Shown here: positions 3,901 to 57,120 of the stretch, in pieces
How positions within the stretch are numbered: position 1 is the stretch's first letter
Layout: every line of letters begins with the position of its first letter
Made by a program: the position numbers and the translations under genes
Notes under the pieces: generated by a model
The model's database searches: none
Told to the model about the DNA's origin: nothing
The model's input: only the letters and a program-made list of their open reading frames with translations
Source: Candidatus Campbellbacteria bacterium
Lineage (GTDB): Bacteria > Patescibacteriota > Minisyncoccia > Phycocordibacterales > JAXHMZ01
DNA length: 64,000 nt
Reading direction: 5' to 3'
Assembly (NCBI GenBank): GCA_034521025.1
Contig: JAXHMZ010000005.1
Location: 126,796-190,795 of the forward strand

Positions 3901-6334
3901 ATGAGTAAAAAAAGGTTCAAAAAAAGGAATATTCTTATTGGCATTTTTGCCTTTGTAATGTTGGTTATATCCGGAGGTCTTCTCTGGGCGTCTACTCTTT
4001 CCATCCCTGACATTTCCGCCTTTGAAACCAGAAAGGTGGAAGAGTCTACAAAGATATACGATCGCACAGGCGAAGTGCTTCTTTATGACGCACACGCGAA
4101 TATCCGCCGCACGGTAATAGACTCTGATGAGATGTCAGACAACATCCGCGGGGCAACCTTAGCCATTGAAGATCAAGATTTCTATAATCACATTGGGATT
4201 GATTTTTCCGCTATTTTTCGCGCTACTTTCGCTAATATAAAAGCAGGCGAGTACGCTCAGGGTGGATCTACAATAACCCAGCAAGTTATCAAGAACTCTC
4301 TTTTAACAAACGAGAAGACCTTGTCCCGTAAAGTCAAGGAGTGGATACTGGCTATAAAGCTAGAGAATGAATACTCTAAGGACGAAATACTAACACTCTA
4401 TTTGAATGAGATACCCTACGGCGGAACGATCTATGGCGCAGAAGAAGCGGCCCAAGCGTTCTTTGATAAACCAGCTAAGGATCTTGGTATAGCTGAATCA
4501 GCTTATTTGGCCTCGCTTCCGCAAGCACCCACTTATTTTCTAAATAACCCCGAGAAACTAGAAGCTCGGAAAAACGCTGTGTTGTCAAAGATGTTGAAAG
4601 GTAACTACATTTCTAGAGAAGAATACGAGGAAGCAAAAGAGGAAGACGTGGACTTTAACGGAATTGCCGGAACTGGTATAAAAGCTCCGCATTTTGTTTT
4701 TTATATCCTAGAAAAACTAGAAACCGAATATGGTAAAGAATTAATACGCGAAGGCGGACTAGACATAATCACAACACTAGATTATGAACTACAGGAGAAA
4801 ATTCAGGAAAGAGTATATGAATACATAATAGACCACCAAGAACAGTTTGATATGGAAAACGCTTCTGTTGTGGTTACAGATCCAAATAGCGGAGAAATAA
4901 TAGTAATGGTTGGCTCGCGTAAATATGACGACGAAAACATAGACGGCGCCGTAAATGTCGCCACCCGCTCTCGCCAGCCCGGCTCTACTTTTAAGCCGTT
5001 TGCCTATGCTACTGCCTTTAAAAACGGATATACGCCTGAATCAGTAATATTTCAACCTGCGCACACAGTTTTCAACGAACTGTGAGCCGCACGAAACAAC
5101 AAGAAAAGAATCTCCTTGTTTTTCCCCCGAAAACTATAACTTTAGCTACCCCGGACCGGTAACTATGCGCCAAGCTCTAGCCGCCTCACAAAACATTCCG
5201 GCAGTAAAAACACTATATTTAGCCGGAGCACGTAATACCATCAAAACCGCCAACGATATGGGGATCTCTACTCTAAATAACGACGACGCGGATCTCTCGC
5301 TCGTTTTAGGATCCGGCGAGGTTAAACTTCTTGAAATGACAAACGCTTACGGAGTTTTCGCCAACGGAGGCATCTACTATGAACCAACCGGAATTTTAGA
5401 GATAGAAGATAGAAGTGGAGAAAAAATAGAAGAGTTTGAAAAAGACAGCAAACGAGTATTGCCCGAACAGAACGCTTTACAAATAACAGATATACTTTCT
5501 GACAGAGGCTTGCGTGTAGGAACCTTCGGACCTGGTACGGCTCTCGATATCCCGAATCCTAATATAGCGGTAAAAACCGGTACGACCAATAATTATCGAG
5601 ATGTCTGGACTATAGGATACAACACAGATATGTCACTCGGTATTTGGGGTGGTAACAACAACAACGATCCTATCGTGAGAAGAGTTTCCACTTATGTCAT
5701 TTCTCCTTTGTGGCGAGAAATTCTTGATATTGTAACTGAAAAGTACCCGGGTGAGACTTTCAGAGAACCAAATAAGGATTATTCAGATATCAATAAACCT
5801 ATATTGACCGGATCTTATACCGGAGGAATTATAAGCGGCGGAAGGATCATCGATCGCGGAGTACATTCCATTCTCCATTGGACAAACCCTTCTAATCCTC
5901 GCGGTCCGGTACCTTCTAACCCTAACTCGATCTCTCAATACAGCTACTGGGAATATCCGGTGAGCGTGTGGAGTAGAGGACAGATTATCGATACCGAAGA
6001 TGAGGAAATAGAAATTGAGGAAGATGAAAACGAAGAGGAGGAAGATGAAAATAATAGTAATGAAGACGTAGAAGCCAACTTCGAGGTTGAGGGACTTAAC
6101 AGCACTTATGATATAGGAGACGAAATGGAATTTGTCGTAGATTCAAGATCTGTTGATATAGAAAAAGCAGAAGCTGTTTTTGGAGAGGAGAGTAATGTGG
6201 ATTCTACAGAGGCTTTCAGATTCACCTTTGAAACTTATTATCTTGACGAGGGCGTTTACTCCCTAGAAATCACCGTGTACGACCACGACGATCAACAAAT
6301 AATGAGAAGTTTTGAAGTAGAAATAGAAGACTAG
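3901..6334 (+). CDS. Class-A penicillin-binding protein (PBP1A-type: TM anchor, GT51 transglycosylase, transpeptidase, acidic C-terminal extension). Split between the SxxK and SxN motifs by a frameshift in about 5050-5140.
   Basis: GT51 motifs (ATLAIEDQDFYNHIGID, GGSTITQQ). STFK (SxxK) lies in ORF 3901..5085. FSPENYNFSYPGPVTMRQALAASQNIPAV (SxN) and KTGTTNN (KTG) lie in ORF 5165..6334, and the SxN segment is readable upstream of its ATG in frame 2. Confidence 0.85.
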
Positions 6335-6598: not shown

Positions 6599-7696
6599 TT
6601 ATTTATTCATAGGCATTACAATATAGGTAAAGTCTTTCGAACCAACTCCACGAACCACAAGCGGCCGTGATACTCCATTAAAAAGCAATTCAACCGATTC
6701 TTCCGGAATCGCCTGAAAACTATCTGTGATGTATCTATAGTTAAAATTAACTGACAGCGGCTCTCCTTCAGCGGTAACATCCAACTCTGCTTTATTCTCC
6801 CCAACTTCGCTTGATCTGGTTTCGAGGATCATCAAGTTTTTCTCGGGATCTATGTCAAACGTCACTTGATTGGTTTTTCCGGAAAAAATAGTTGAAACCT
6901 TAAAGGCGTCAATTAAGTCTTGTTTTAGAACTGTAACTTTAGTCGAATACCCTTCCGGAATAATTTTTGCGTAGTCGGGAAATACTCCATCAACTATTCG
7001 TGATGTTATATAAAAGGAATTATCTACAATAGCTATCTGATTATCTCCGAAGATCATTTCAACTTCACCGTCAACTCCCTCAAGGATCCTCTCTATTTCT
7101 AAAACATTTTTTTGCGGGACAAGCACCGGCTCTACAGAGTGAGCTTCTTTTTCGGATAATTTCTTCTCCGCTAAACGAAAAGAATCTGTCGCAACGAAAA
7201 CTAAGTTATTGTCATCGGTACCTGATATATACACACTGGACAATTCAGGTTTAACAGAAGAAACGGAGGCGCTGTACACAACTGACTTTATTCCCGCGCG
7301 TAGTTTTTCAGCACTGAAATGAACAGAAGTTCCTTTTATTCTAGGTATAGTTGGAAACTCTGAGTGATCAAAGGTATTAAAAGTCGCGTGTTGTTTCTCT
7401 GAGGCAACCAGAAGGGTCTTGTCTTCGCTTTCCAGGGTAATACTTTTTCCACGAAGAGAAGAAACATAAGAGGCGAGAGATTGAGCTGAAATAGCCACGA
7501 CTCCTTCCTTTTCTACTTTAACCGGAAGGGAAATTTCAATTCCTAATTCTAGATTAGTACTTTTTACTAATAGAATCCCATCCTTAGCTTCAAGTAAAAC
7601 AGAAGACAGAATTGGAAGAGATGCATGCTTTCCTGCTATCCTTTCTGTTTTTCTTAATGCGTCGGCTAGTTTGGTTTGTACACATTCTATCTTCAT
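6599..7696 (-). CDS. dnaN: DNA polymerase III beta sliding clamp.
   Basis: 365 aa with the three-domain clamp pattern. Immediately downstream of dnaA on the same strand. Confidence 0.9.
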   Translation of the reverse strand: MKIECVQTKLADALRKTERIAGKHASLPILSSVLLEAKDGILLVKSTNLELGIEISLPVKVEKEGVVAISAQSLASYVSSLRGKSITLESEDKTLLVASEKQHATFNTFDHSEFPTIPRIKGTSVHFSAEKLRAGIKSVVYSASVSSVKPELSSVYISGTDDNNLVFVATDSFRLAEKKLSEKEAHSVEPVLVPQKNVLEIERILEGVDGEVEMIFGDNQIAIVDNSFYITSRIVDGVFPDYAKIIPEGYSTKVTVLKQDLIDAFKVSTIFSGKTNQVTFDIDPEKNLMILETRSSEVGENKAELDVTAEGEPLSVNFNYRYITDSFQAIPEESVELLFNGVSRPLVVRGVGSKDFTYIVMPMNK

Positions 7697-9288: not shown

Positions 9289-9500
9289 AAGGCGTTAACG
9301 GCTAATACTCATAGTATACAACTTGTGGATAAGATAAGAAAATGTGGCCCTGATAAGCCCACTGGAAGCCCTTATTTTTCTATTCGGTGATAATTTTGTG
9401 GAAAACCTGTGGATATCTCGTTGAAAAATGGGAAAATAGCACCAGCACGAGCCAAAACGATTGACTGTTTTAGCAAAGTGAGCTAACATTCCTTTCGTAA
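9289..9500. promoter_or_regulatory. oriC / dnaA promoter region with a DnaA-box cluster.
   Basis: TGTGGATAA (perfect reverse-complement of TTATCCACA) at 9324-9332, TGTGGAAAA at 9397-9405 and TGTGGATAT at 9408-9416, all in the same orientation, plus an AT-rich stretch. Lies between the divergent dnaA and rpmH genes. Confidence 0.65.
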
Positions 9501-16276: not shown

Positions 16277-18089
16277 TTATTGATCAAGTTTGTTTTTTGC
16301 TTCTTTGATGGCGAGAATCTGCGCGGGGTCTGAGGTAATTATTTGCTCTTCTGTATACGAGGCGATTATTTTGATGGCAACATGCTTGAGTCCGGCAAAG
16401 AATATTCCCTCTCCCACATCACTCTCCAGCAAAAGATACTTTTCTTCGTCGGTCAGGTTAAAGACTTCTTGCACGTGATCGATCGAGGTGGGAGATTGCT
16501 TCAAGAGTAATTGAATAGAAGAGTTGGTCAAAATTGGCAGACCGTATTCGGAGTTCAAGAAGTCGTCCACGTCCTGGGTTATAGTAGCCACGCCCAAATA
16601 GTACTTGCGACCTCGCTTAACCATACTGTATAGGAATGAAGCAGTGTCTTCGGAGCGCATCATCCACCATGCCTCATCAACTACCAAAAGACGTTTCTTG
16701 AGCTCGAAACGCACAGCGTTCCAGATGAAGTGCGTTATAAGGTACATCGCCATTGGCTTTAATTCGTCTTCCATGTCGCGTATTGAGAACACGATCAACC
16801 TTTGGTCTATATCTACGTTTGTAGGCTGGTTGATAAATTCTGACCACGAACCTTTGGTGTACTTAGAGAGTCTTTGTACGAGAGATTCAGTGCCCTCCAT
16901 TCCGCTCAAGAACCATCTCAAAATCAGACATAAGCGGTGGATCAATGTTAGAAAAGTCGGAATCGGGCGTTATGTCTTTTAGAGCGTATGTTTCGGTAAT
17001 GGCACGGTCGATAATAGCATCTTCTTCCGGCGTTAATCCGCCGAACATAATTCGAAATAAGCCGACCAATTGGATCGTGTTCGACCTGAGCACGTCTGCG
17101 GGGTCCTCGTCTTCTCGTACATCGGGTAAATCAAAAGGATTTATGTGGTGCTCGGAATTTAGTGAAATATTAAAATATCGCCCGCCGATAGCCGTAGCTA
17201 GTTGCTCATATTCACGTTCCGGGTCTATAACTATAACTTCGGTATCGAACATCAGAGTACGAAGTATCTCTAGCTTGGTAGCAAAAGACTTGCCGGCGCC
17301 TGATTTCGCGAAAGAAACCGAGTTGTAGTTCTCGAGTGAAAAACGGTCAAACAAGACCAGCGAGGAATTGTGCCGATTTATGCCGTGGAGGATGCCTTTG
17401 TCTGATGTTAAGTCGAAAGAAATGAAAGGGAAAATACTAGAGAGCGGAGACGTGTTCAGCTTAGAATAAACGTTAAGCTTGTCAGTTCCGAAAGGGAATA
17501 CGCTCATCAGGCCCTGTTCCTGCTGGAATATAGCCGGCTTGATATAAACCAACTTTGCTTCCAGTATGGACCGGATCTCACTTTCGAGCTTATCCAGCTC
17601 GTTTTGGTCTTTTCCGAAAATGGATACATAAAGCCCCACATCGAATAGCTTTTCTTGCGCCTGCTGGAGATCGTCACGAAGACTTTCAAGGTCGGCGAGC
17701 GCTGTATCGAGCATTGGACTACGCACAAGCCCTTTTTGCATACGGGAATTTATCTGAGACTGAACTTCAGCCACCTTTTTTTGAAATTGTCTTAATACCC
17801 GCTCGGTTGAAATTGGATGAACAACAATTGAAATATCGACAATTTTGTCCATATTTATGATCGGAGCGAACCAGCCTTCAGACAGGTATCGCGGATAAGA
17901 GATGACAAAGAAAGTTCGCACCAGCTTGTCTCCCAAGTGGATATCCTTAGGCGTAACCTTTAGGGCCGAAGGAGCGATCACATCCTTTACTTCGAGAGCG
18001 CTGCCCGACGCCATCTCGCCCGGCAAGAGCGATTCGATCGCAGACATCTTGTTTTCTTCTTGATTGTTTTCTTTTCCGAAAAGAGCCAT
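16277..18089 (-). CDS. VirB4/TraC/TrbE-family conjugation/T4SS ATPase. Split by a frameshift in the 16887-16945 overlap; total about 610 aa.
   Basis: Walker A FAKSGAGKSFATKLE in ORF 16887..18089. Walker B LLVVDEAWWMM in ORF 16277..16945. The ORFs overlap by 59 nt in different frames. Confidence 0.8.
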
Positions 18090-30859: not shown

Positions 30860-30889
30860 AAATGCTTCAATCTATAGATTGAAGCATTT
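30860..30889. terminator. Bidirectional hairpin terminator between the convergent LysM-M23 and comM genes. An identical palindrome occurs at 43408..43437.
   Basis: AAATGCTTCAATC-TATA-GATTGAAGCATTT perfect inverted repeat flanked by A/T runs. Confidence 0.55.
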
Positions 30890-35797: not shown

Positions 35798-36765
35798 TTG
35801 CTATACTATAGGTATAAACGGCTTATGAATGCTTTAGAGACTTATAAACGAGAATTTCTCGAACATATTGAAATTGAAAAGGGGCGTTCTCTCAAAACGG
35901 TTGAGAATTACGACCGCTATCTAAATAGTTTTTTTGAATTTGCCAAAATATCTCAACCGGATCAGAAATTAACGAAGAATTAATTCGTCGTTTTCGTCTG
36001 CATTTGAACCGCAAGCGAGCTAACGCGGACGGAGATACTCTAAAGAAGAAAACGCAAAATTACTATTTGATCGCGCTCAGAAGTTTTCTGAAGTATTTAT
36101 TAAAAAGAGATATCTCTACTCTTTCCCCCGAAAAAATCGAACTAGCCAAAGTGTCCGACAGAAACCTTGACTTAATTACTCGCGAGGAGCTGAATAGGAT
36201 CTTAGCTGGTCCGGACACTGACAGTGAAAATAAAAACGAAAAATTGGCGGCGCTTCGTGATCGAGCTATTTTAGAAATGCTCTTTTCTACCGGATTGCGT
36301 GTCTCCGAGCTCTGTTCCCTTTCTAGAGAGATAGACTTAAGCCGAGAGGAGATGACCATTAGAGGAAAAGGAGATAAGGTGAGAATTGTTTTTATCTCGG
36401 AAGACGCGAAAGACGCTGTTCGTGCCTATCTGAAAGAGCGAGTAGATATAGACGAAGCCCTTTTTATTTCACACTCCAAGCGTGACATCAACAAAGACGG
36501 GAGCGACGTTGAAAGACACCTGACGCCGCGTTCAGTAGAAAGAATAGTAGAAAAATATGCTATTAAGGCCGGTATCTCAAAGAAAGTTACTCCTCATGTT
36601 ATACGGCATTCTTTCGCGACCGATCTTTTACAAAATGGAGCTGATATACGTTCTGTGCAGACCCTGCTTGGCCACGCTGATATCTCCACAACACAAGTTT
36701 ATACACATGTGTCGAACTCACATTTAAAAGAGGTCTATAAAAAGTATCACAACAAAAAGAATTAG
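35798..36765 (+). CDS. XerC/XerD-type tyrosine recombinase. Split (35798..35983 and 36004..36765) by a frameshift near 35955-35975.
   Basis: N-terminal SAM-like domain in ORF 1. ORF 2 carries the catalytic R...HxxR...Y set (LRVSEL, HVIRHSFAT, TQVYTHV). Its frame reads ...NEELIRRFRLHL upstream of the start. Confidence 0.8.
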
Positions 36766-38692: not shown

Positions 38693-39469
38693 ATGAAAAT
38701 CATTTCTTGGAATGTAAACGGCATAAGGGCTTTGGAAAAGAAAGGACAATTCAACTGGCTTTTAAGCAAAGGTCCGGATGTTTTTTGTCTGCAAGAAACC
38801 AAAGCCAGAGCAGAACAACTGGATGAGTCACTTCTTTCTCCTGCCGGTTACTTTTCCTTTTTTTCATCACACGAAGAAAAGAAGGGGTATAGCGGTACAG
38901 CTTTATACAGCAAAAAAGAGCCGGATAGGGTTGACCATGGAATCGGAATAAAGGAGTTTGATAACGAAGGTCGAATGGTAATAGCAACCTTTGGCAAAAC
39001 TATCGTAGCTAATGTGTATTTTCCCAATGGCGGAGGAGGCCCGGAACGGTTGGATTATAAGCTGAGATTTTATGATGCCTTTTTGGAATATTGCCTCAAA
39101 AAACAAGAGCAAGGATATGAATTGATAATAGCCGGTGATGTTAATACGGCACACGAAGAAATTGACCTTGCTCGAGCAAAAGAGAATGAAAAAAACACCG
39201 GCTTTTTGCCGGAAGAAAGAGCGTGGATCGACGAGGTGATCCGCAATGGATTTGCCGACGCTTTTCGTAGTGTTTATCCAAATAGAGCTGAGGCCTATAC
39301 ATATTGGGATCAAAAAACATACGCGCGAGAGCGTAATGTCGGTTGGCGCATAGACTACTTTCTAGTTACTCAGGGAATTAAAGCAAAAATAAAAGACGTG
39401 GTTCTGCATACTGACGTAAAAGGTTCTGACCATTGTCCGATAGAATTAGTTCTAAAGGACACTTTGTAA
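38693..39469 (+). CDS. xth: Exodeoxyribonuclease III.
   Basis: MKIISWNVNGIRA..., ...CLQETK..., and the C-terminal ...GSDHCPIELV. Confidence 0.9.
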   Translation: MKIISWNVNGIRALEKKGQFNWLLSKGPDVFCLQETKARAEQLDESLLSPAGYFSFFSSHEEKKGYSGTALYSKKEPDRVDHGIGIKEFDNEGRMVIATFGKTIVANVYFPNGGGGPERLDYKLRFYDAFLEYCLKKQEQGYELIIAGDVNTAHEEIDLARAKENEKNTGFLPEERAWIDEVIRNGFADAFRSVYPNRAEAYTYWDQKTYARERNVGWRIDYFLVTQGIKAKIKDVVLHTDVKGSDHCPIELVLKDTL

Positions 39470-39545
39470 AAGACATTCTAAAGGACATTTTTTGTAAAGG
39501 ACACTTATCCACAGAAATGTCCTTTACAAATCTAAAGGACAAATT
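39451..39545. repeat. Array of five CTAAAGGACA-type repeats (one inverted) enclosing a perfect DnaA box (TTATCCACA, 39505..39513).
   Basis: Direct reading: the 12-mers TGTAAAGGACAC / TGTCCTTTACAA flank TTATCCACA as an inverted pair. Confidence 0.5.
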
Positions 39546-39847
39546 ATACTAATAATCAGACGTATCGCGATACAATTTTAGAGAAACATATTCGGAATTC
39601 TACAAAAGGAATTCATCAATTAGGTAGCTGTTTCTTGTAAAACATATGTTCTTTCCTGTCCGCGCGGCCACGTGGACCACAACTAAACAAAAGCCTGCGT
39701 TATTTCTCGCTAAATTGCGAATTTGCTCCTAACTTATCCCACTTATTGGCAAGCCCGCACTATTTAGCCCATTTCAAAGCCGTACTTGCGACCATTTTTC
39801 ATCCCACTTATTTGAGTTGCATCATAGTGCGGCTTTTTCTATTTTAT

Positions 39848-39863
39848 TGTTTCATGTGAAACA
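39848..39863. promoter_or_regulatory. parS-like site (TGTTTCATGTGAAACA, one mismatch).
   Basis: 16-bp palindrome matching the parS consensus TGTTNCACGTGAAACA. Confidence 0.5.
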
Positions 39864-39895
39864 GATTTAAGGTTTCTCGGGAAACAAATATAATA

Positions 39896-41392
39896 CTATT
39901 TTACCCAGTATTTTTTGCGAATTTCTTTAATAGTAGCTTCGTCGTACTCCTCTTGGGTAGATTTCCCCTTTTTTCCTAATTCCTCTAGTTCTTTATTTGG
40001 TAATTTGAACAACTCTTCTGCCCGGTTTTTGAGATACTCTGCGATGTTTTTGTCGGGGTCATCAAGGACTTCTTCGAGGAGAGCGTGAAGGATATAGCCA
40101 ATATGAGGACCCGGTTTTGAATCTGTCAGTTTCATAATTTCACTGCCGTCAATTTTTAGCATATCTACGGATATTGGGTCTCGCAGTACTTCAGCGATCA
40201 TCGCCTCGTATTTTCTTAATCTATAAGGACTTTCTTTAGGTCTTCCGGTTCCGATCCTGTCGGCACGACGCAAGCTCAAAAGGTCTTCGACGTTCTCTTT
40301 CCCCACGTTTCTTACCATTCTTCTGACCGCGGAATATGATATTTGATCAGTATCCGTAAAAAACATATGCCATCGTACTAACTTTGTTACACGTGAAACG
40401 GTCTCTTTTGGATATTTTAAGCGTTCTAAGACAGTCTTTGTTACACGTGAACCAACCACGTCGTGGCCGTGAAATGCCCAATCTTTTTTCTTGTTAGACC
40501 ATTCTCGCGTATATGGCTTACCGATATCGTGAAAAATTGAAGCAAGTTTTACGTGAAACGGAAGATCTTTGTCAGCTGCATACTGAGCTGTGCGTAGCAA
40601 ATGCTCCCAGACGGTGAAGGCGTGCGCCTGATTTTGCTCTATTCCCACACTTTTCTCAAATTCGGGCAATATAACGTGCAATATTCCCAAACGTTCCATG
40701 AGAAACATACCAGTCATAGGGTTTTTTGAATCGATGATCTTGGAAAACTCATCTCTAATTCTCTCTTGAGCGATGTTTTTGAGCTCTTCTGTGTGGTTTT
40801 GAATGGCCTCTTGCGTAGAATTCTCAATAGAGAAGTCTAGAGTTGTAGCTAGGCGTACGGCACGCATTATTCTAAGCGCGTCTTCAGCGAATCTTTGACT
40901 CGGGTTTCCAACCGCTTTAATGGTTTGTGCCTTAAGGTCATTTTGTCCGTTGTAGGGGTCAACAAATGTTCCACGAGAAACGTCGGAAGGGTTATTTGCA
41001 CTTAGATCCGGGGATAATGCTATAGCATTAACTGTAAAGTCGCGTCTTTTCAGGTCATCATTAATGTTTTTCGTGAAACTAACCTGATCTGGCCTTCTTT
41101 TGTCGCTATAACCGCTTTCTTCGCGGTATGTAGTAACTTCAATTGTTTGGTGACGAGGGTCTTCTGCGTCTTCAAAAACAACACCAACTGTTCCAAATTC
41201 GTTTTCGTAAAAACTGTGTTCAAACAAAGACAATATTTCTTCGGGAGTAGCGTCAGTGGCGACGTCCCAATCGTCTGGCTCGCTTTCAAGGAGTATGTCG
41301 CGCACGCAACCACCCACAAAATATGCCTCAAAACCGGCTTGTTTGAGAGTTTTTACCGTATCCAGCGCTTCCTGAGGTATTTGTTGTGCCAT
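39896..41392 (-). CDS. cca: CCA-adding tRNA nucleotidyltransferase with a C-terminal HD domain.
   Basis: YFVGGCVRD...DWDVATDATPEE Pol-beta-type head. HD motif ...FHDIGKPYT. Confidence 0.85.
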   Translation of the reverse strand: MAQQIPQEALDTVKTLKQAGFEAYFVGGCVRDILLESEPDDWDVATDATPEEILSLFEHSFYENEFGTVGVVFEDAEDPRHQTIEVTTYREESGYSDKRRPDQVSFTKNINDDLKRRDFTVNAIALSPDLSANNPSDVSRGTFVDPYNGQNDLKAQTIKAVGNPSQRFAEDALRIMRAVRLATTLDFSIENSTQEAIQNHTEELKNIAQERIRDEFSKIIDSKNPMTGMFLMERLGILHVILPEFEKSVGIEQNQAHAFTVWEHLLRTAQYAADKDLPFHVKLASIFHDIGKPYTREWSNKKKDWAFHGHDVVGSRVTKTVLERLKYPKETVSRVTKLVRWHMFFTDTDQISYSAVRRMVRNVGKENVEDLLSLRRADRIGTGRPKESPYRLRKYEAMIAEVLRDPISVDMLKIDGSEIMKLTDSKPGPHIGYILHALLEEVLDDPDKNIAEYLKNRAEELFKLPNKELEELGKKGKSTQEEYDEATIKEIRKKYWVK

Positions 41393-41557
41393 TTATGCTT
41401 AATTGTATTACAGGTTGTGGTATTTATCTAACCAATTTAAGAAGTTTCGATTAGATAACTCTAATTTAAATGATTATGTTGTCAAATGGAGCTAATGTTT
41501 CAAATACGCCCATTTGCATTTATAATTCAGAGATATATACTGAGTTTCTGGAAAAAC

Positions 41558-41629
41558 GCTCCCGTGGTGAAATGGATATCACAACTGACTTCGGATCAGT
41601 TATTCTGGGTTCGAATCCTGGCGGGAGCA
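41558..41629 (+). tRNA. tRNA-Arg (anticodon TCG).
   Basis: Manual cloverleaf fold: acceptor GCTCCCG/CGGGAGC, D-arm GTGA/TCAC, anticodon loop CTTCGGA, T-arm CTGGG-TTCGAAT-CCTGG, discriminator A. Confidence 0.85.
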
Positions 41630-41846
41630 CACGAATGAAGTGAGTGGGCCTCCGAGAAAGCTCATTTCTGAGCTTTCGTCCGGGAGGACTGTTTGAGAAG
41701 GTTGCCAGATGGTTTGGAGAGCTTGCGAGGCAAACCATCGACAACCTGTACTGCTCCTGTAAGGAGGAGTATATCGCGCGGAACGTAGTGAGCACGATAC
41801 GAGACCTGTACTGATCATGTAATGATCGAATCCTGGCGGGAGCACA
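41630..41846 (+). mobile_element. About 200-nt insert ending in a direct repeat (41826..41846) of the tRNA-Arg T-loop-to-3'-end (41611..41631). Contains a module homologous to those at the Gly-GCC and Pro loci.
   Basis: 21-nt exact repeat TCGAATCCTGGCGGGAGCACA. Internal ...GAGTATATCGCGCGGAACGTAGTGAGCACGATACGAGACCTGTACTGA... is about 75% identical to the other modules. Confidence 0.5.
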
Positions 41847-41948
41847 AAGATCAAACAAAACTAATTTGTGGTTGAAACTAAATTTTGGGTTTGATTAACT
41901 TGTAGAGTTCCGTGAGAAACATTTTTCTTCCAGAAGGAAATCATAATT

Positions 41949-41966
41949 ATGTTTCACGTGAAACAT
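41949..41966. promoter_or_regulatory. Perfect parS site (ATGTTTCACGTGAAACAT), just upstream of the tRNA-Gly promoter (TTGCTT-16nt-TATAAT).
   Basis: 18-bp perfect palindrome containing the 16-bp consensus parS. Confidence 0.65.
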
Positions 41967-42019
41967 AATATCAAAATTTGCTTCAATTCGAGCAACTGGT
42001 ATAATCTCCTAAGCCATTT

Positions 42020-42090
42020 GCGAGTATAGTTTAGTGGTAGAACGCATCCTTGCCAAGGATGAGACGGGAGTTCGATTCTCCCTACTCGCA
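42020..42090 (+). tRNA. tRNA-Gly (anticodon GCC).
   Basis: Acceptor GCGAGTA/TACTCGC, anticodon loop TTGCCAA, T-arm GGGAG-TTCGATT-CTCCC. Confidence 0.85.
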
Positions 42091-42274
42091 CCGTAATCCA
42101 AAAACCTCTTTGCATCTTGCGAGTCACACTACGCTGGGGAATGGCGAGAGCGAGCACATTTCTGTGCTCGCGCCGGCGGGGAATCGAAAAGATCGAGTAT
42201 ATCGTACGGAGCGACAGCGAGTACGATACGAGATCTCTACCGAATCTGTAAGATTCGATTCTCCCTACTCGCAC
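42091..42274 (+). mobile_element. Insert with a conserved ~72-nt module (42182..42253), ending in a 21-nt direct repeat (42254..42274) of the tRNA-Gly T-loop-to-3'-end.
   Basis: Module GAATCGAAAAGATCGAGTATATCGTACGGAGCGACAGCGAGTACGATACGAGATCTCTACCGAATCTGTAAG is nearly identical (3 mismatches) to the one at 44170..44243. Confidence 0.55.
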
Positions 42275-42421
42275 ACTAGAAAAATCCCTTTCTGCGGTGA
42301 TTTTACTTACTCTAGCGAGTAGACTTGTTGCACTGCGAGAGACTTAGGAGTTTGATTTAAAGCCCATATCGCTTGATTTTACAGCGTGCCTAGGATAATG
42401 TGGCTTTTGAGTTAGGTCTGG

Positions 42422-43324
42422 TTGTCAGATCTAAGCTGTACTTTCTCAGCCATAGAAAAGGAGAAGAAAATGAGTCGAAATTTTAGGGAGATGATCGGTC
42501 GGCATTGGTCTAGAGGGAATTTTGTTTGTGTCGGGCTTGATACTGACTTTGACAAAATTCCAAAGGTCGCCAAGGGCAACAAGAGCCATTATTCTCCGGA
42601 AGACATCTCCAGTGTTGTCGTCAGTTACAACAAAAGAATAATTGAGGCAACGCGAGACTTGGTCTGCGCTTACAAGCTAAACACTGCTTTCTACGAGAAA
42701 CACGGTGCTAATGGCTTGGACGCGCTTCGTCAGACGATCGACTACATCCTCGAAACCGCCGCAGACGTTCCCGTGATCCTAGACGCCAAGCGGGCTGACA
42801 TTGGCAATAGTAACGAGGCCTATGCAGAAGCAGCTTTTGCTTCTCTACGGGCAGACGCGATCACTGTTCATCCATACCTTGGTCATGCGGCACTTGAGCC
42901 ATTTCTGGCACAAAGAAACAAAGGGATCTTTGTTTTGTGTCGCACCTCTAACTCGGGAGCTGGTGAGTTTCAGGACCTCTCCGTAGGGAACAATGAGCCA
43001 CTATATCTCCGAGTTGCTAGAAACGTAGCTGACATTTGGAACAAGTACGGAAACTGCGCTCTGGTTGTCGGCGCTACTTTCCCCAAGGAGTTGGGCGAAA
43101 TTAGAAAAACCGTCGGGAATCTGCCGATACTCATTCCGGGTATTGGAGTGCAAGGGGGCGACTTGAAGGAGGTCGTAAATGCTGGCAAAGATAGCCGCGG
43201 TATGGGAATGATAATTAACTCATCACGCGGTATCATCTTTGCCTCAGAGGGCGACAATTACGCAGAAGCTGCGAGAGTAGAAACCAAAAGACTCCAAGGC
43301 AGGATCACTAGATACCTACTCTGA
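42422..43324 (+). CDS. pyrF: Orotidine-5'-phosphate decarboxylase (type 2). True start probably the internal Met (MSRNFREMIG...).
   Basis: ...VCVGLDTD... and ...VILDAKRADIGNS... motifs. Confidence 0.75.
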   Translation: MSDLSCTFSAIEKEKKMSRNFREMIGRHWSRGNFVCVGLDTDFDKIPKVAKGNKSHYSPEDISSVVVSYNKRIIEATRDLVCAYKLNTAFYEKHGANGLDALRQTIDYILETAADVPVILDAKRADIGNSNEAYAEAAFASLRADAITVHPYLGHAALEPFLAQRNKGIFVLCRTSNSGAGEFQDLSVGNNEPLYLRVARNVADIWNKYGNCALVVGATFPKELGEIRKTVGNLPILIPGIGVQGGDLKEVVNAGKDSRGMGMIINSSRGIIFASEGDNYAEAARVETKRLQGRITRYLL

Positions 43325-43340
43325 AGCTCTCACTTAAAAG

Positions 43341-43378
43341 ACCAGAGCCGCTGTGACTCAGAATAGCGGCTCTTTTTT
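43341..43378 (+). terminator. Rho-independent terminator after pyrF.
   Basis: AGAGCCGCT...AGCGGCTCT hairpin followed by TTTTTTG. Confidence 0.6.
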
Positions 43379-43407
43379 GTTGCAAAACTGTATTTTGTGT
43401 GTAAATA

Positions 43408-43437
43408 AATGCTTCAATCTATAGATTGAAGCATTTA
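43408..43437. repeat. Second copy of the 30-bp palindromic element AAATGCTTCAATCTATAGATTGAAGCATTT.
   Basis: Identical to 30860..30889. Confidence 0.5.
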
Positions 43438-43453
43438 AGTGATCGTTTTCAGT

Positions 43454-43469
43454 GTTTCACGTGACACAT
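43454..43469. promoter_or_regulatory. parS-like site (TGTTTCACGTGACACA, one mismatch). A perfect DnaA box (TGTGGATAA) lies 47 nt downstream at 43516..43524.
   Basis: Direct reading. Confidence 0.5.
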
Positions 43470-43609
43470 TTTTAACGCATTTAAGCCATATTTATAGGAC
43501 ATTTTGTGTATAACTGTGGATAAGTCTGTGAATATGTGTATAAAAGACATTTCTTTTTTGTCTCTAATGTCTTTTCTAAAACGCTTAACCACGCTATTCT
43601 AAATGGACA

Positions 43610-44001
43610 ATGCATCCATTAACGCATCTGGATATAGGACAAATCGGGGAAAATGCCGCGCTTCGTCATTATGAGAAAAGAGGCTTCAGATCAATACAGC
43701 AGAACTATCAAAAACCTTTTGGGGAGATAGATCTAATTGTAGAAAAAGATAAAAAATTGGTTTTTGTGGAGGTGAAAGAGTGTTTCATGTAAAACTTATT
43801 CGGATGTTTCACGTGACACACATAATCCCGCAGAGAATATTCACTTTAAAAAACGAAAAAGACTGCGCAAGACCATTGTCAGTTTTCTGTCGGAGATTCG
43901 ACGACGGTTTCTCGGAGTGGCGTTTTGACGTTGCATTGGTGCTAGTAAACACTAAAGTAAGACACTCTAGGGTGGAGATCATTGAAGATGTTGTGCTATA
44001 A
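43610..44001 (+). pseudogene. yraN: YraN/UPF0102-family endonuclease disrupted by a short insert carrying parS-like sites (43790..43820) and at least one further frameshift.
   Basis: N-terminal part ...GEIDLIVEKDKKLVFVEVKE then stops. The middle (ENIHFKKRKRLRKTIVSFL) and the C-terminus (RFDVALVLV...) lie in two other frames. Confidence 0.55.
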
Positions 44002-44061
44002 ACAACGACAGATTGAATTTTTTATCTACCGGTGATACTATCAGTTGGCGTAAACGCAATA

Positions 44062-44134
44062 CGGAGTGTGGTGTAACGGCTAACATTCCTGGTTTGGGAC
44101 CAGGCGATTCCGGGTTCGAATCCCGGCGCTCCGA
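44062..44134 (+). tRNA. tRNA-Pro (anticodon TGG), with a C1:G72 pair.
   Basis: Acceptor CGGAGTG/CGCTCCG, anticodon loop TTTGGGA, T-arm CCGGG-TTCGAAT-CCCGG. Confidence 0.85.
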
Positions 44135-44264
44135 AAGAAGTAAGGATAAGAAAAGCAGGGCTTTTCCAGGGATTCGAAAAGATCGAGTATATCGCACGGA
44201 GCGACAGCGAGTACGATACGAGATCTGTACCGAATCTGTAAGATTCGAATCCCGGCGCTCCGAA
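44135..44264 (+). mobile_element. Insert with the conserved ~72-nt module (44170..44243), ending in a 21-nt direct repeat (44244..44264) of the tRNA-Pro T-loop-to-3'-end.
   Basis: TTCGAATCCCGGCGCTCCGAA is repeated exactly. The module is near-identical to that at 42182..42253. Confidence 0.55.
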
Positions 44265-44363
44265 CGAATCCTCGCTTTTTCTTGACAAACACATGGTTTA
44301 ACAATACAACTAACGCTGGAGACGGTGGGTGTTCTTTCTAAAGAGGTTTGGAGGCTTGTCTAA

Positions 44364-44798
44364 ATGTTAGGTAAAGAAGTTCTCTGTATCGCGCATAGAG
44401 ATGATACGCTTGCTTGTTTAGCGATCGAGGCATTGGAAGCGTATAAAGGGAAAACAGATATACACTTCAAAACAGAGTTAGCTGGGAGTGTGAGTATCTC
44501 TGAGACCCCGTGTGTAGTTTTTGTTACCTTGAGCGAAAGAGAAATAACCGACAATGGTAGAACCACCACAGGGAGTCTGCGATTTAGGGGCAAATATCTC
44601 AAGATATTGGGAGGCAAGGAGATTGAGTTGTATAAGCCCGCATGGGCTCCGAATGCCTATATGGTGGTTGCTCTGAAAAACGAGCTAAAGACAGTGAAAG
44701 GGGACCCAAAAGAATCTGAGGCGTTTGGGCAAGCCATCATACACGTTTTTGAAGGAGGTAAGGGTAGAAAAATAGTTCGAGCTCAAAAAGATACCTAA
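44364..44798 (+). CDS. Hypothetical protein.
   Basis: 144-aa ORF with no recognisable motif. Confidence 0.35.
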   Translation: MLGKEVLCIAHRDDTLACLAIEALEAYKGKTDIHFKTELAGSVSISETPCVVFVTLSEREITDNGRTTTGSLRFRGKYLKILGGKEIELYKPAWAPNAYMVVALKNELKTVKGDPKESEAFGQAIIHVFEGGKGRKIVRAQKDT

Positions 44799-44847
44799 AC
44801 TTCTTGGACAAACTCCAGGTGGCTTGCATAGCCACCTTTAAATACAA

Positions 44848-44950
44848 ATGTCTTTTACAAATATTCTAAAGGACATATAATACAAGAAGTGTCCTTTAGG
44901 GCATCAACTATAAAGGACAAAATACTTATAAAGGACATAAAGGACAAATA
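44848..44950. repeat. Array of about six TAAAGGACA-type repeats in both orientations, ending at the mscS start codon.
   Basis: CTAAAGGACAT, GTGTCCTTTAGGG, TATAAAGGACAAAA, TATAAAGGACATAAAGGACAAAT. Confidence 0.5.
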
Positions 44951-44953
44951 ACA

Positions 44954-46027
44954 ATGAATTTAGATACAGTTATATTGGGAAATAATATAGAAGAATATTT
45001 ACTAGCAGTGGCCGCTACAATAGTGGTTTACGCTATTTTGTGGGTATTCAAACAAATTACTTTTTCGTTTTTAAAAAAGAGAAAAGATAAACTGGGTGGC
45101 GACGTTGGTTACGCCTTATTCGAAATGGCTTCCTACGTGAAGTTTTGGTTCTATCTTGCTATCTCCTTGTATGTTGGAACACAATTTCTAGAATTATCGG
45201 CGAGGGCTTCGTTGGTGTTTGAAAGGGTCTTTTTAGTGGCATTGGTAGCACAAGCAATTATATTGGGCTCAATTTTCTTGCGTTTTCTTCTCCGACAAAA
45301 GTACGCCAAAGGAAAGAGCGCCACTATCCAGTCGGCAGTTGAGATCCTATCTACGGTGGCAGTAGCGCTATTGTGGATACTCGGTGTCCTATTTGTCCTT
45401 TCTAATTTTGGTGTAGAAATTACTTCTCTTATCGCCGGCCTTGGTGTTGGAGGTTTGGCTGTAGCTCTCGCTCTGCAGGGAGTATTGGGTGATCTTTTCA
45501 GCTCTCTTGCTATCTACTTTGATAAGCCGTTCGAGGTGGGGGACTTTATTGAGTACGCAGGAAATTTCGGTACCGTGAAGCATATAGGAATGAAGACCTC
45601 AAGAATTGAGCTTCTTAGCGGGGAAGAGTTTGTAGTGACCAACCGAGAACTTTCTGATGGAAAAATTAGAAACTTTACGCGCTTGGAAGAATATAGAGAG
45701 TCTATGAACTTTGGTGTTACATATGAAACGTCTCTTGATAAGCTCGAGCGTATACCAGAGATCGTTCAGAGTATAGTTGAGTCCATTGATAAGGCGCGCT
45801 TCGATAGAACTCATCTGAGCGGGTTTGATGAATCAGCGCTTACTTTTACGACAATTTACTTCGTAGAGGATAATAATTATGACGTATATATGGACACCAA
45901 GCAAAAAATAAACCTTGAGGTATTGCGCGCTTTCGAAAAAGAGGGAATTGAAATTGCTTACCCAACTAGAACGCTTCACGTACAAAAGGAGTCTCCCTAC
46001 ACAAATTCTCAAGCTACTGATTCCTAG
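44954..46027 (+). CDS. mscS: Small-conductance mechanosensitive channel (MscS family).
   Basis: TM3-like GLGVGGLAVALALQGVLGDLFS. Beta-domain ...PFEVGDFIE..GNFGTVKHIGMKTSRIE.... Confidence 0.8.
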   Translation: MNLDTVILGNNIEEYLLAVAATIVVYAILWVFKQITFSFLKKRKDKLGGDVGYALFEMASYVKFWFYLAISLYVGTQFLELSARASLVFERVFLVALVAQAIILGSIFLRFLLRQKYAKGKSATIQSAVEILSTVAVALLWILGVLFVLSNFGVEITSLIAGLGVGGLAVALALQGVLGDLFSSLAIYFDKPFEVGDFIEYAGNFGTVKHIGMKTSRIELLSGEEFVVTNRELSDGKIRNFTRLEEYRESMNFGVTYETSLDKLERIPEIVQSIVESIDKARFDRTHLSGFDESALTFTTIYFVEDNNYDVYMDTKQKINLEVLRAFEKEGIEIAYPTRTLHVQKESPYTNSQATDS

Positions 46028-54785: not shown

Positions 54786-55303
54786 ATGTTTGTACGTTTC
54801 AAGATCGTTCCGCTTCTCTTACTCGCCCTTTTTGCTCGGCGCTCCGCGCTCTGGGTAGAATCTTCGGAAGAGGATCCCCTACTTGAAGAAACTTCCCCTC
54901 AAGTTTGGAGCGTGGATCTCAGTGAAGCCGGCTTTGGATTGACCTTTACGCCAAACGACGACCTAAGGTCTGATCCCTACGTGGACTTTCTGGGGATCTA
55001 ATGAAGGTGGAGGTTCTTGCGCAGAGCAACAACCCCGATCTTCACCTACAAACACTCCAAGGGTTCACTCGATATGACTTCATCGATTCAATTTCTGTGT
55101 GTGCCTTGGAGCGCGAGGAAAACGCGGAGCTGCTCGAGAGGATCGATAACGCTACAGAAAGCAACTTCGGTTCTTTCTATGACGCTTGGCTTGGGCTGTA
55201 TGACAGAGAATGTGACACTTCCTTCTCTCGTCTTGGGTGGCCGAACCCTGAAGCCAATGAAGGCCTGGGAATGTGTTCGCTGGAGAGGGTTAGTGAAGTC
55301 TAA
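54786..55303 (+). pseudogene. Array unit 1 of the lectin-like secreted-protein gene, broken into two ORFs by a stop/indel after ...DFLGI.
   Basis: Near-identical to the intact unit 3, except for TAATGAAGG versus TACGAAGG at the junction. Confidence 0.55.
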
Positions 55304-55332
55304 GTAGTTATCCCCAGTGAACTTCATGTTCA

Positions 55333-55925
55333 TTGGCAATTTATATTATAATTAAAGTGTATATGAGTGTTTTCAAACTACTTTCGATATTGGTCTCAGC
55401 TGTAGTCGCTTTTCTATCTGTTGTCGCGTTGTTTTTGATGTTTCTAATGAGAAGGATCCCCCAACCGAAGAAACTTCCCCTCAAGTTTGGAGCGTGGATC
55501 TCAGTGAAGCCGGCTTTGGCGTATTGACCTTTACGCCAAACGACGACCTAAGGTCTGATCCCGACGTGGACTTTCTGGGGATCTAACGAAGGTGGAGGTT
55601 CTTGCGCAGTACAATACAACCCCGATCTCCACGGACAAACACTCGAAGGGTTCACTCGATATGACTTCATCGATTCAATTCTCGTGTGTGCCTTGGAGCG
55701 CGAGGAAAACGCGGAGCTGCTCGAGAGGATTGATAACGCTACAGAAAGCAACTTCGGTTCTTTCTATGACGCTTGGCTTGGGCTGTATGACAGAGAATGT
55801 GACACTTCCTTCTCTCGTCTTGGGTGGCCGAACCCTGAAGCGAATGAAGGCCTGGAATGTGTTCCTGGCTTGGAAGAGGGCTTGAGCGAAGTCTAAGTAG
55901 TTATCCCCAGTGAACTTTATGTTCA
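55333..55925 (+). pseudogene. Array unit 2, frameshifted.
   Basis: T5 versus T6 homopolymer difference in the signal-peptide region relative to unit 3, and TAACGAAGG versus TACGAAGG later. The downstream domain is otherwise intact in another frame. Confidence 0.55.
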
Positions 55926-55955
55926 TTGGGGATTTATATTATAATTAAAGTGTAT

Positions 55956-56471
55956 ATGAGTGTTTTCAAACTACTTTCTTTTTTATTGGTCTCAGCTGTA
56001 GTCGCTTTTCTATTTGTTGTCGCGTTGTTTTTTGATGTTTCTAATGAGAAGGATCCCCCAACCGAAGAAACTTCCCCTCAAGTTTGGAGCGTGGATCTCA
56101 GTGAAGCCGGCTTTGGCGTATTGACCTTTACGCCAAACGACGACCTAAGGTCTGATCCCGACGTGGACTTTCTGGGGATCTACGAAGGTGGAGGTTCTTG
56201 CGCAGTACAATACAACCCCGATCTCCACGGACAAACACTCGAAGGGTTCACTCGATATGACTTCATCGATTCAATTCTCGTGTGTGCCTTGGAGCGCGAG
56301 GAAAACGCGGAGCTGCTCGAGAGGATTGATAACGCTACAGAAAGCAACTTCGGTTCTTTCTATGACGCTTGGCTTGGGCTGTATGACAGAGAATGTGACA
56401 CTTCCTTCTCTCGTCTTGGGTGGCCGAACCCTGAAGCGAATGGAGGCCTGGAACGTGTTCCTGGCTTGTGA
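55956..56471 (+). CDS. Array unit 3, intact: secreted protein with a C-type-lectin-like signature (about 170 aa from Met11 of the ORF).
   Basis: Signal peptide MSVFKLLSFLLVSAVVAFLF. Motifs WLGLYDRECDTSFSRLGWPNPEAN and ...EREENAELLERIDNATESNFGSFYDA. Confidence 0.55.
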   Translation: MSVFKLLSFLLVSAVVAFLFVVALFFDVSNEKDPPTEETSPQVWSVDLSEAGFGVLTFTPNDDLRSDPDVDFLGIYEGGGSCAVQYNPDLHGQTLEGFTRYDFIDSILVCALEREENAELLERIDNATESNFGSFYDAWLGLYDRECDTSFSRLGWPNPEANGGLERVPGL

Positions 56472-56559
56472 AGAGGGCTTGAGCGAAGTCTAAGTACAGT
56501 TAATCCTCAGTGAACTTTATGTTCATTGGGGATTTATATTATAATTAAAGTGTATATGA

Positions 56560-57120
56560 GTGTTTTCAAGCTTACTTTTCTTTTTTATTGGTCTCAGCTG
56601 TAGTCGCTTTTCTATTTGTTGTCGCGTTGTTTTTCTGACGTTTTCCAACGAGAAGGATCCCCCAACCGAAGAGACTTCCCCTCAAGTTTGGAGCGTGGAT
56701 CTCAGTGAAGCCGGCTTTGGCGTATTGACCTTTACGCCAAACGACGACCTAAGGCTCTGATCGACGTGGACTTTCTGGGGATCTACAAAACGAAGGTGGG
56801 AGGTTCTTGCGAGCAGACAAAGTCCGATCTCCACGGACAAACACTCGAAGGGTTCACTCGATATGACTTCATCGATATCAACTCTCGTGTGCGCCTTGGA
56901 GCGCGAGGAAAACGCGGAGCCGCTCGAGAGGATTGATAACGCTACAGAAAGCAACTTCGGTTCTTTCTATGACGCTTGGCTTGGGCTGTATGACAGAGAA
57001 TGTGACACTTCCTTCTCTCGTCTTGGGTGGCCGAACCCTGAAGCGAATGAAGGCCTGGAATGTGTTCCTGGCTTGGGAGAGGGCCTTCTGATGCAGATAG
57101 AGATCCATTATCCCTGACAT
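56560..57120 (+). pseudogene. Array unit 4: the most divergent copy, with several indels and stops.
   Basis: Homologous segments are spread over three frames (56560..56760, 56863..57117). Confidence 0.5.

Follow-up and report, generated by a model that had tools for sequence, protein, structure and literature searches.

Several regulators are known to couple the initiation of bacterial replication to gene expression, among them CtrA of Caulobacter, Spo0A of Bacillus, MtrA of mycobacteria, AdpA of Streptomyces and HP1021 of Helicobacter, whose consensus sites are TTAA-N7-TTAA, TGTCGAA (the 0A-box), GTCACAgcg, TGGCSNGWWY and TGTT[TA]C[TA], respectively. These sites are short non-palindromic words that occur in both orientations and at variable spacing, at promoters and at, or overlapping, DnaA boxes near the origin. 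Hardly anything is known of how replication and gene activity are controlled in the Patescibacteria, a mostly uncultured group that accounts for much of bacterial diversity. Here we analysed a stretch of 64,000 nt from a Candidatus Campbellbacteria contig (JAXHMZ010000005.1), referred to as a whole as the window and used for counting all positions, focusing on a 9-bp word, TAAAGGACA, that forms arrays near the genes xth and mscS. The arrangement of this 9-mer, and the coupling expected from it, resemble those of the regulators named above, whereas its sequence differs from all their consensus sites. Moreover, CtrA-type regulators have genome-wide regulons, while the 9-mer was seen only within about 5 kb, and no response regulator was found near the arrays. 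We propose that TAAAGGACA is the recognition word of a candidate sequence-specific, origin-region DNA-binding protein of Paceibacteria-type Patescibacteria, which would gate both DnaA boxes and origin-flanking promoters, and we assign this reading a probability of about one half.

The exact 9-mer occurred ten times in the window against 0.58 copies expected, a number that none of 100 shuffled sequences reached. The copies fill two stretches of less than 100 bp each, 39453-39541 (array 1) and 44867-44946 (array 3), with five copies apiece in both orientations, and no exact copy was present in the remaining 58.4 kb of the window. The one-mismatch variant TAAAAGACA adds one copy to each array (39467, forward, and 44849, reverse), giving six and six, in agreement with the preliminary description of this DNA, which had counted five to six copies in both orientations at either place. 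Five loci sharing the tRNA/mscS synteny with the window (L019, L031, L036, L041 and L056, labelled Paceibacterota, Paceibacteria, Kaiserbacteria or "Patescibacteria group") were retrieved by means of the mscS protein, independently of the motif, and contained 31 exact 9-mers in 105 kb versus 0.8 expected, nearly all of which, with one outlier, were gathered in some 5 kb to the same side of mscS. The window itself belongs to a probably Paceibacteria-like member of the Patescibacteria. In 75 non-syntenic loci from the candidate phyla radiation (CPR) and DPANN the 9-mer appeared 7 times in 1.13 Mb versus 8.65 expected. A metagenome scan with the pattern TTATCCACANNNNTGTCCTTTA matched at least 120 contigs; 122 non-identical composite loci and contigs, combined, were pooled among the matches listed, and all figures given below for 122 contigs refer to this set. 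Nearly all of these loci share further features, and they are therefore homologues and not chance matches. The same 9-mer arrangements were found at syntenic positions in five distant genomes, and the 9-mer also in at least 120 metagenome contigs. Relatives thus keep the arrays at the orthologous places. The resulting position matrix, T-A-A-A-[G 0.79 / A 0.21]-G-A-C-A with T-rich flanks, is nearly invariant at eight of nine positions. In the nearest relatives, L116 and L135, the 9-mers, the DnaA box, the −35 and the −10 of array 1 are invariant, while spacers and copy number differ, the upstream 9-mers of array 1 numbering four in the window, three in L116 and five in L135.

Array 1 begins within xth, its first copy overlapping the final codons of the gene (stop 39467-39469), and it surrounds a perfect DnaA box, which the inverted 12-bp pair TGTAAAGGACA / TGTCCTTTACA brackets at 39505-39513 as previously described. 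Beyond that description, arrays 1 and 3 were each found to hold a complete predicted σ70-type promoter, the two best matches of the region. A σ70 consensus scan of 39300-45100 returned 44854-44881 in array 3 as the best match (11/12) and 39523-39550 in array 1 as the second best (10/12). The −35 hexamer TTTACA of array 1 is part of the reverse 9-mer with its flank (TGTCCTTTAca), with transcription predicted to begin at the A or G of cAG (39558-39559); judged from its sequence, array 1 is the promoter of a predicted unannotated RNA between xth and cca. In both arrays the −35 is the weaker TTTACA, other promoters here having TTGACA or TTGACT, and activation by a factor is therefore possible.

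The geometry of array 1 recurs widely. The arrangement TAAAGGACA-N1-2-TTATCCACA-N4-TGTCCTTTA was found in L031, L036 and L041, while L056 retains only the half consisting of box, N4 and reverse 9-mer, and L019 has a one-mismatch box in the opposite orientation. A −10 (TAnnnT) lies 40-41 nt after the box start and 16-17 bp past the −35 in 75% of the 122 contigs, and a G conserved near +54 is the likely start. A second 9-mer, in either orientation, occupies the promoter spacer in about 95 of 122 contigs; it is direct, 11-13 bp after the first, in 65 of them, and inverted, abutting the −10, in about 30 contigs and in the window. Further 9-mers are located 1-2 bp (36 contigs) and 18-22 bp (34 contigs) upstream of the box. 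The element adjoins xth in 89 and cca in 84 of the 122 loci.

Array 3 carries the predicted mscS promoter, built like that of array 1 and with a predicted start at about 44888, and four additional 9-mers in the predicted mscS leader. As the preliminary description had stated, the array runs up to the start of mscS, ending 7 nt ahead of the ATG at 44954. The AAGGA of its last copy could act as a Shine-Dalgarno sequence for this ATG, and the first two leader copies can pair as a 9-bp RNA hairpin. Identity to the closest mscS relatives, which stem from metagenome-assembled genomes of Patescibacteria and DPANN, reaches only about 40-44%. In relatives a homologous 9-mer cluster directly follows yraN and is succeeded by a short open reading frame (ORF), tRNA-Pro and mscS. 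This short ORF of about 22 codons encodes a hydrophobic peptide behind a strong AAGGAGG ribosome-binding site (L031 9548-9619, L041 9383-9469); no counterpart was found in the window.

In relatives the 9-mer is also selected as a DNA word within the coding sequence of cca. Among the cca genes of relatives (64 distinct genes), 36 of 38 x-K-G-Q/H sites following RRDFTINA were spelled exactly TAAAGGACA, whereas the codon use of the genes themselves predicts 4.8%, and the DNA word thus appears to dictate the peptide. At these sites lysine was encoded by AAA in 100% of cases (64% elsewhere) and glycine by GGA in 100% (28% elsewhere), and the base preceding the lysine codon, a third position, was T in 95% versus 27% elsewhere. 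Examples of in-frame TAAAGGACA are found at L112 2586-2618, L128 334-366 and L137 2714-2763, and the window's own cca is without any such site. Same-orientation 9-mer pairs 24 bp apart in relatives had been considered as regulatory sites and were set aside, as they are located inside the cca coding sequence; the codon test on these embedded pairs indicated that they are still selected as DNA words.

A further group of sites, "array 2", lies near yraN. Here the preliminary description had reported a perfect, isolated DnaA box at 43516-43524, degenerate 9-mers at about 43490-43560 and a parS-like site. The box is present one base to the left, at 43515-43523, and far from being isolated it belongs to a conserved tandem DnaA-box module. 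The degenerate copies were recovered (TATAGGACA, TAAAAGACA and, reversed, TGTCTTTTC), as was the parS-like site, TGTTTCACGTGACACA at 43453-43468, which is one mismatch from the consensus. In relatives the module is located on the far side of cca and reads AAAAC-TGTGGATAA-nTC-TGTGGATA-TGTGGATAAAGGACA, i.e. three tandem boxes, the last of which shares TAA with the 9-mer fused to it; a spacer of 15-25 nt, the reverse variant TGTCTTTTA, AAAATATGGCT, parS and yraN follow. Of 45 eligible contigs, 21 had the fused TGTGGATAAAGGACA behind the tandem boxes; in L031, L041 and L056 it is degenerate. The module of the window keeps the order seen in relatives in a degenerate form and has been displaced by an insertion of tRNA and pyrF. 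The yraN promoter at 43.57 kb is probably covered by 9-mers as well. A copy of TATAGGACA also occurs at 43633, inside the yraN coding sequence, probably due to chance. Beside the tandem module we also observed the motif AAATATGGCT(T)AAA, at 43480-43493 on the reverse strand of the window and in region B of L041, L056, L083, L104, L114 and L131; its pooled enrichment was modest.

The origin of replication (oriC) is commonly, not obligatorily, adjacent to dnaA and dnaN. In the window these genes are grouped with rpmH, rnpA, yidC and jag about 30 kb to the left of the arrays, dnaA itself being about 31 kb off, and in L176 dnaA lies 11 kb off on the other side. The array region contains two of the only three perfect DnaA boxes in the 64 kb (39505 and 43515, the other being at 9324, upstream of dnaA). 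The window has six parS-like sites against 0.03 expected, and all of them fall within 39848-43820, between arrays 1 and 3. Three of them are located in coding DNA, namely those at 40385 and 40439 in cca and that at 43805 in yraN, where the codons V-S-R-D/E-T spell parS. In the 122 contigs, 161 parS-like sites were counted within ±6 kb of the element, and perfect DnaA boxes were enriched +2.0 to +2.75 kb downstream of it. Third-position GC skew (GC3), pooled over the contigs with the coding strand regressed out, showed a step of r = +0.043 with its best boundary at +2 kb; when xth and cca were excluded the step was r = 0.046 (bootstrap 95% 0.027-0.067), with the boundary in the excluded gap in 190 of 200 bootstraps. 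Since the parS sites lie between the arrays and the pooled skew switches there, the locus is probably oriC, and we consider it somewhat likelier than not that the origin is contained within 39.4-45 kb.

The locus has a DnaA-box cluster, made of four tandem box-like 9-mers at 43505-43543 plus the perfect box at 39505, and origin-proximal parS sites. It resembles an oriC with a basal unwinding system, which is based on tandem DnaA boxes (PMC8287927), in having tandem boxes of the same orientation, dense parS sites and a pooled skew switch. It differs in its distance of about 30 kb from dnaA, in the lack of a visible DnaA-trio run or marked AT-rich element, and in the extra conserved 9-mer fused to the last box.

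The 9-mers thus cover the −35 and the spacer of predicted origin-flanking σ70 promoters (of the RNA at 39.5 kb, of mscS at 44.9 kb and probably of yraN at 43.57 kb), and their distance to DnaA boxes is fixed, with gaps of 1 bp and 4 bp at 39505 and an overlap of 3 bp at 43541. According to the proposed mechanism, because the sites lie over promoter elements and against DnaA boxes, their occupancy would control the access of RNA polymerase and of DnaA together, whether by competition or by cooperation, and origin-proximal transcription would be coupled to replication initiation as it is by CtrA, Spo0A, MtrA, AdpA and HP1021. The preliminary description had already suggested binding sites for an origin-region DNA-binding protein, a suggestion supported by the nearly invariant words, the confinement to about 5 kb, the fixed spacings to the boxes and the pooled skew switch. 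In this form the 9-mers would be accessory-factor sites at a bacterial origin, a known kind of element. A wider and more tentative generalisation, which we hold to be possible and short of even odds, is that in Paceibacteria-type Patescibacteria the origin lies not at dnaA but at the xth-RNA-cca-yraN locus, with tandem boxes, a parS cluster, a boxA-bearing RNA controlled by a DnaA box, and arrays of a lineage-specific 9-mer bound by an origin factor that gates DnaA and the flanking promoters; this would amount to a new layer of initiation control in a major bacterial radiation. A literature search with the motif strings gave only primers and eukaryotic matches, and no paper linking oriC with Patescibacteria was retrieved. 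The nearly invariant word marks one 5-kb region, predicts the position of the origin and can be used as bait for its binding protein, and it also points to a widespread unannotated RNA with a DnaA box in its promoter. If the proposed factor does gate DnaA, it would offer a new example of the coupling of replication to physiology in reduced, host-dependent bacteria.

A number of observations weigh against the proposal of an origin-region regulator. The intergenic region between dnaA and rpmH contains one perfect and two imperfect DnaA boxes, and oriC could therefore be there. The GC3-skew profile of the window alone was flat and uninformative and did not resolve a switch. A duplex-stability scan revealed no outstanding low-stability stretch at 43.3-43.6 kb and no clear DNA unwinding element (DUE) by the tandem boxes, the least stable stretches nearby being 44946-45005 and 41421-41480. 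When the site was inspected according to published DnaA-trio criteria (PMC8287927), no (NAN)≥3 run stood out clearly where one would be expected from side and distance. The pattern used to select the metagenome contigs contains the DnaA box and one 9-mer, so that the box/9-mer spacing statistics in that set are not independent, and the genome-wide confinement of the 9-mer rests on the window and five 21-kb loci, most genomes being represented only near the element. Finally, no binder could be named, neither the conserved neighbours nor the literature yielding a candidate. Clustering of the neighbouring ORFs (at least 70 amino acids, and 30-100 amino acids) returned xth, cca, a XerC-like recombinase, YraN, NYN, S15, PNPase, HU and scattered TrmB-like paralogues, and no conserved small ribbon-helix-helix (RHH) or helix-turn-helix (HTH) gene beside the arrays; none of HU, the TrmB-like paralogues, the XerC-like recombinase and YraN could be tied to the motif.

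Known regulators were compared with the 9-mer by their consensus sites. None of those of CtsR, HrcA/CIRCE, LexA, Fur, NrdR, WalR, PhoB/PhoP, Spo0A, CtrA, MtrA, WhiA, SpoIIID and SinR fits, in line with the earlier remark that no regulator consensus could be placed; for WhiA (GACAC), the base following ACA is C in only 12% of copies, which speaks against it. DnaA itself was judged an unlikely binder of the 9-mer, which shares only five of nine positions with the DnaA box, the DnaA of the window having the standard RDHTTV signature.

One alternative, which we regard as unlikely, takes the 9-mers for ordinary operators of a local repressor or activator that controls a handful of adjoining transcription units (the RNA gene, yraN with a small ORF, and mscS) and plays no part in replication; the DnaA boxes would then be there because DnaA acts as a transcription factor, or simply because the origin is near. 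The sites do overlap the −35 and the spacer and reach past the start site as classical operators do, lying over predicted core promoter elements at 39518-39550 and 44849-44881, and TrmB-like HTH regulators are common in these contigs. The direct repeats of 11-12 bp period just upstream of the −10 also resemble Pho-box/OmpR-family promoters of class II, 65 of 122 contigs having two same-orientation copies with a period of 11-13 bp that replace or overlap the −35 and end 7-9 bp before the −10; however, about 30 contigs, like the window, have an inverted second copy, and copies occur far from promoters too. Against local operators, the sites are confined to the DnaA-box/parS region, copies are under selection within cca, in coding DNA that should contain no promoter, and a 9-mer is fused to the last tandem DnaA box in a module that lacks clear promoter geometry; a regulon made of an RNA, a nuclease-like protein and a channel would also be functionally incoherent. 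Another alternative is an origin-organising, centromere-like array binding a structural protein that anchors or compacts the origin, or bounds ParB spreading, with secondary effects on promoters, in the manner of RacA/ram sites or of the short-repeat centromeres bound by ω- and ParR-type partition proteins. In the window the arrays bracket the whole parS cluster, copies are also present within coding DNA, and short repeats in both orientations that overlap promoters are a feature of the pSM19035 ω heptads as well. We nevertheless consider this explanation quite improbable, since parS lies outside the arrays in some contig classes (−560 to −680 in the L105 type), the distances to −35, −10 and DnaA boxes are more exact than a purely structural role would call for, and no conserved small RHH gene is nearby.

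The preliminary description had also mentioned, as a speculation, a DnaA-titration locus. In its broader form, a datA- or DARS-like site modulating the DnaA-ATP/ADP pool, this finds some analogy in the tandem boxes with an adjacent accessory motif at 43.5 kb, datA and DARS combining DnaA boxes with IHF or Fis sites, and in the location of the locus apart from dnaA. It is very doubtful in view of arrays 1 and 3, which carry one and zero DnaA boxes and give no indication of datA-like titration, and of the pooled skew switch and parS cluster, which mark an origin rather than a titration site. A function at the RNA level, with UAAAGGACA acting as a Shine-Dalgarno-like or small-RNA-target element, seems highly improbable: four copies do lie in the predicted mscS leader, the last usable as a Shine-Dalgarno sequence, and the neighbouring RNA has a strand-specific GUUCUUU, which can pair with AAAGGAC via one G·U pair, and CU-rich loops, but most of the conserved copies are upstream of the predicted starts, in both orientations and at fixed distances to −35, −10 and boxes, and no transcript is evident in region B. 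Least credible of all is an origin of the repeats in a second, plasmid-type initiator (iterons), in arm-type sites of a tyrosine recombinase or in a remnant mobile element, which could be invoked on account of repeats beside DnaA boxes, of the XerC-like recombinase adjoining xth in 50 contigs and of the partial tRNA-Pro duplication at 44237-44266. Plasmid-type iterons are direct repeats of about 17-22 bp with regular spacing and an adjacent Rep initiator, so that the earlier term "iteron-like" holds for a superficial likeness of the repeats and fails for the 9-bp unit, the irregular spacing (0-24 bp), the mixed orientation and the lack of a Rep-type gene among the neighbours. The origin of Vibrio chromosome 2, with its RctB 12-mers and rctA, offers a parallel in the repeats by a DnaA box, the promoter under inverted repeats and the non-coding transcript; here, however, the unit has only half an iteron's length and varies in spacing and orientation, no initiator gene lies beside it, and the element belongs to the chromosome and is kept throughout the lineage. 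Its syntenic position in very divergent genomes would not be produced by a mobile element.

The RNA predicted downstream of array 1 was considered separately. It folded with a z-score of −2.78, none of 100 shuffled sequences folding as well. A search of the window and 20 related loci against Rfam 15 at gathering scores returned only tRNAs, a permissive search gave nothing relevant in 39400-39950 (E ≤ 10) or in L117 (E ≤ 5), and ARAGORN found no transfer-messenger RNA (tmRNA). Only L135 and L116 match the copy of the window, and the sequence evolves fast. In the 122-contig set the promoter is followed by 250-350 nt of non-coding DNA (about 520 nt in one contig class), a terminator and usually a convergent gene. 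More than 100 Patescibacteria contigs carry this promoter together with a non-coding transcription unit behind it. An 11-member related subfamily has a covarying hairpin and a nested terminator presenting the invariant loop CGCCCCUGCUCCUUUU. A boxA-like element, GTTCTTT[ACG]AAAA, is located strand-specifically near the 5′ end, within the first 200 nt in 74 of 122 contigs, and is often doubled with copies 10-12 nt apart. The boxA of rRNA leaders (the NusB/NusE site) is similar in its strand-specific position near the 5′ end of an untranslated transcript and in often occurring as two copies, but no rRNA gene follows the array 1 RNA. The promoter-RNA cassette is turned round with respect to the flanking genes in L105, L167, L193 and L200, where it is placed between cca (+) and xth (−).

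Table 1. Positions of the sites, predicted transcripts and genes of the window
Feature	Position	Strand	Remarks
dnaN	6599-7696		about 30-31 kb from the arrays
dnaA	7942-9288		about 30-31 kb from the arrays
xth	38693-39469	+	
Exact TAAAGGACA, array 1	39453, 39479, 39495, 39518, 39533	+, +, +, −, +	
Upstream 9-mers, array 1	39453-39503	+	TAAAGGACA at 39453, 39479, 39495; variant TAAAAGACA at 39467
Perfect DnaA box TTATCCACA	39505-39513	+	1 bp after forward 9-mer, 4 bp before reverse 9-mer
Reverse 9-mer TGTCCTTTA	39518-39526	−	last four bases plus CA form the −35 TTTACA (39523-39528)
Spacer 9-mer and −10, array 1	39533-39550	+	9-mer 39533-39541; −10 TATACT 39545-39550; 16-bp spacer
Predicted unannotated RNA	39558-39850	+	about 290 nt, between xth and cca
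boxA-like GTTCTTTCC	39648	+	within predicted RNA
Hairpin loops with AUCCCACUUAUU	39736 and 39801	+	within predicted RNA
Terminator-like stem, then T run	39814-39835	+	within predicted RNA
parS-like sites	39848, 40385, 40439, 41950, 43453, 43805		41950 perfect
cca	39896-41392	−	
tRNA-Arg	41558	+	
tRNA-Gly	42020	+	
pyrF	42422-43324	+	
Probable oriC core ("array 2")	43480-43575		DnaA-box-like 9-mers and degenerate 9-mers
AAATATGGCTTAAA	43480-43493	−	within probable oriC core
Degenerate 9-mer TATAGGACA	43493		within probable oriC core
Box-like TGTGTATAA	43505		one mismatch; tandem, same orientation
Perfect DnaA box TGTGGATAA	43515-43523		tandem, same orientation
Box-like TGTGAATAT	43527		two mismatches; tandem, same orientation
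Box-like TGTGTATAA	43535		one mismatch; last of the tandem boxes
9-mer TAAAAGACA	43541-43549		overlaps last box by 3 nt
Reverse 9-mer variant TGTCTTTTC	43567-43575	−	
yraN (UPF0102)	43610-44001	+	readable only across at least 2 frameshifts
tRNA-Pro	44062	+	
Orphan ORF	44364-44798	+	144 amino acids; no Pfam match
Predicted mscS promoter in array 3	44849-44881	+	built like array 1 promoter, without DnaA box
Reverse variant TGTCTTTTA	44849-44857	−	carries −35 TTTACA (44854-44859)
Spacer 9-mer TAAAGGACA, array 3	44867-44875	+	fills 16-bp spacer, abuts −10 TATAAT (44876-44881)
Exact TAAAGGACA, array 3	44867, 44890, 44911, 44929, 44938	+, −, +, +, +	
9-mers in predicted mscS 5′ leader	44890-44946		44890 (−), 44911 (+), tandem pair 44929 and 44938 (+)
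mscS	44954-46027	+	

The coordinates of the features are collected in Table 1. The yraN gene of the window is either a pseudogene or affected by sequence errors, intact orthologues flanking the DnaA-box module in relatives. The orphan ORF is not conserved at its position, the ORF at the matching position of L031 being YraN. The 3′ end of tRNA-Pro (44106-44134) is repeated about 130 bp downstream (44237-44266), with the orphan ORF after it, and repeat and ORF together look like the scar of an insertion at the tRNA.

Elsewhere in the window, an identical 30-nt palindromic hairpin, AAATGCTTCAATCTATAGATTGAAGCATTT, occurs at 30860-30889 and 43407-43436, 12.5 kb apart and each time past a gene end. 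From 11349 to 34753 runs a long block of minus-strand genes, which includes a TraG-like P-loop protein (16277-16945) and may represent the type IV secretion/conjugation-like machinery described for Patescibacteria. A XerC-like recombinase is encoded at 36004-36765. Frameshifts may also explain why a penicillin-binding protein is divided between two ORFs (3901-5085 and 5165-6334) and why YebC is short, with 176 amino acids (895-1425). Finally, at 54871-57075 a unit of about 600 bp occurs in four tandem copies that are 76-100% identical, and every copy has a short ORF and an AT-rich upstream stretch.

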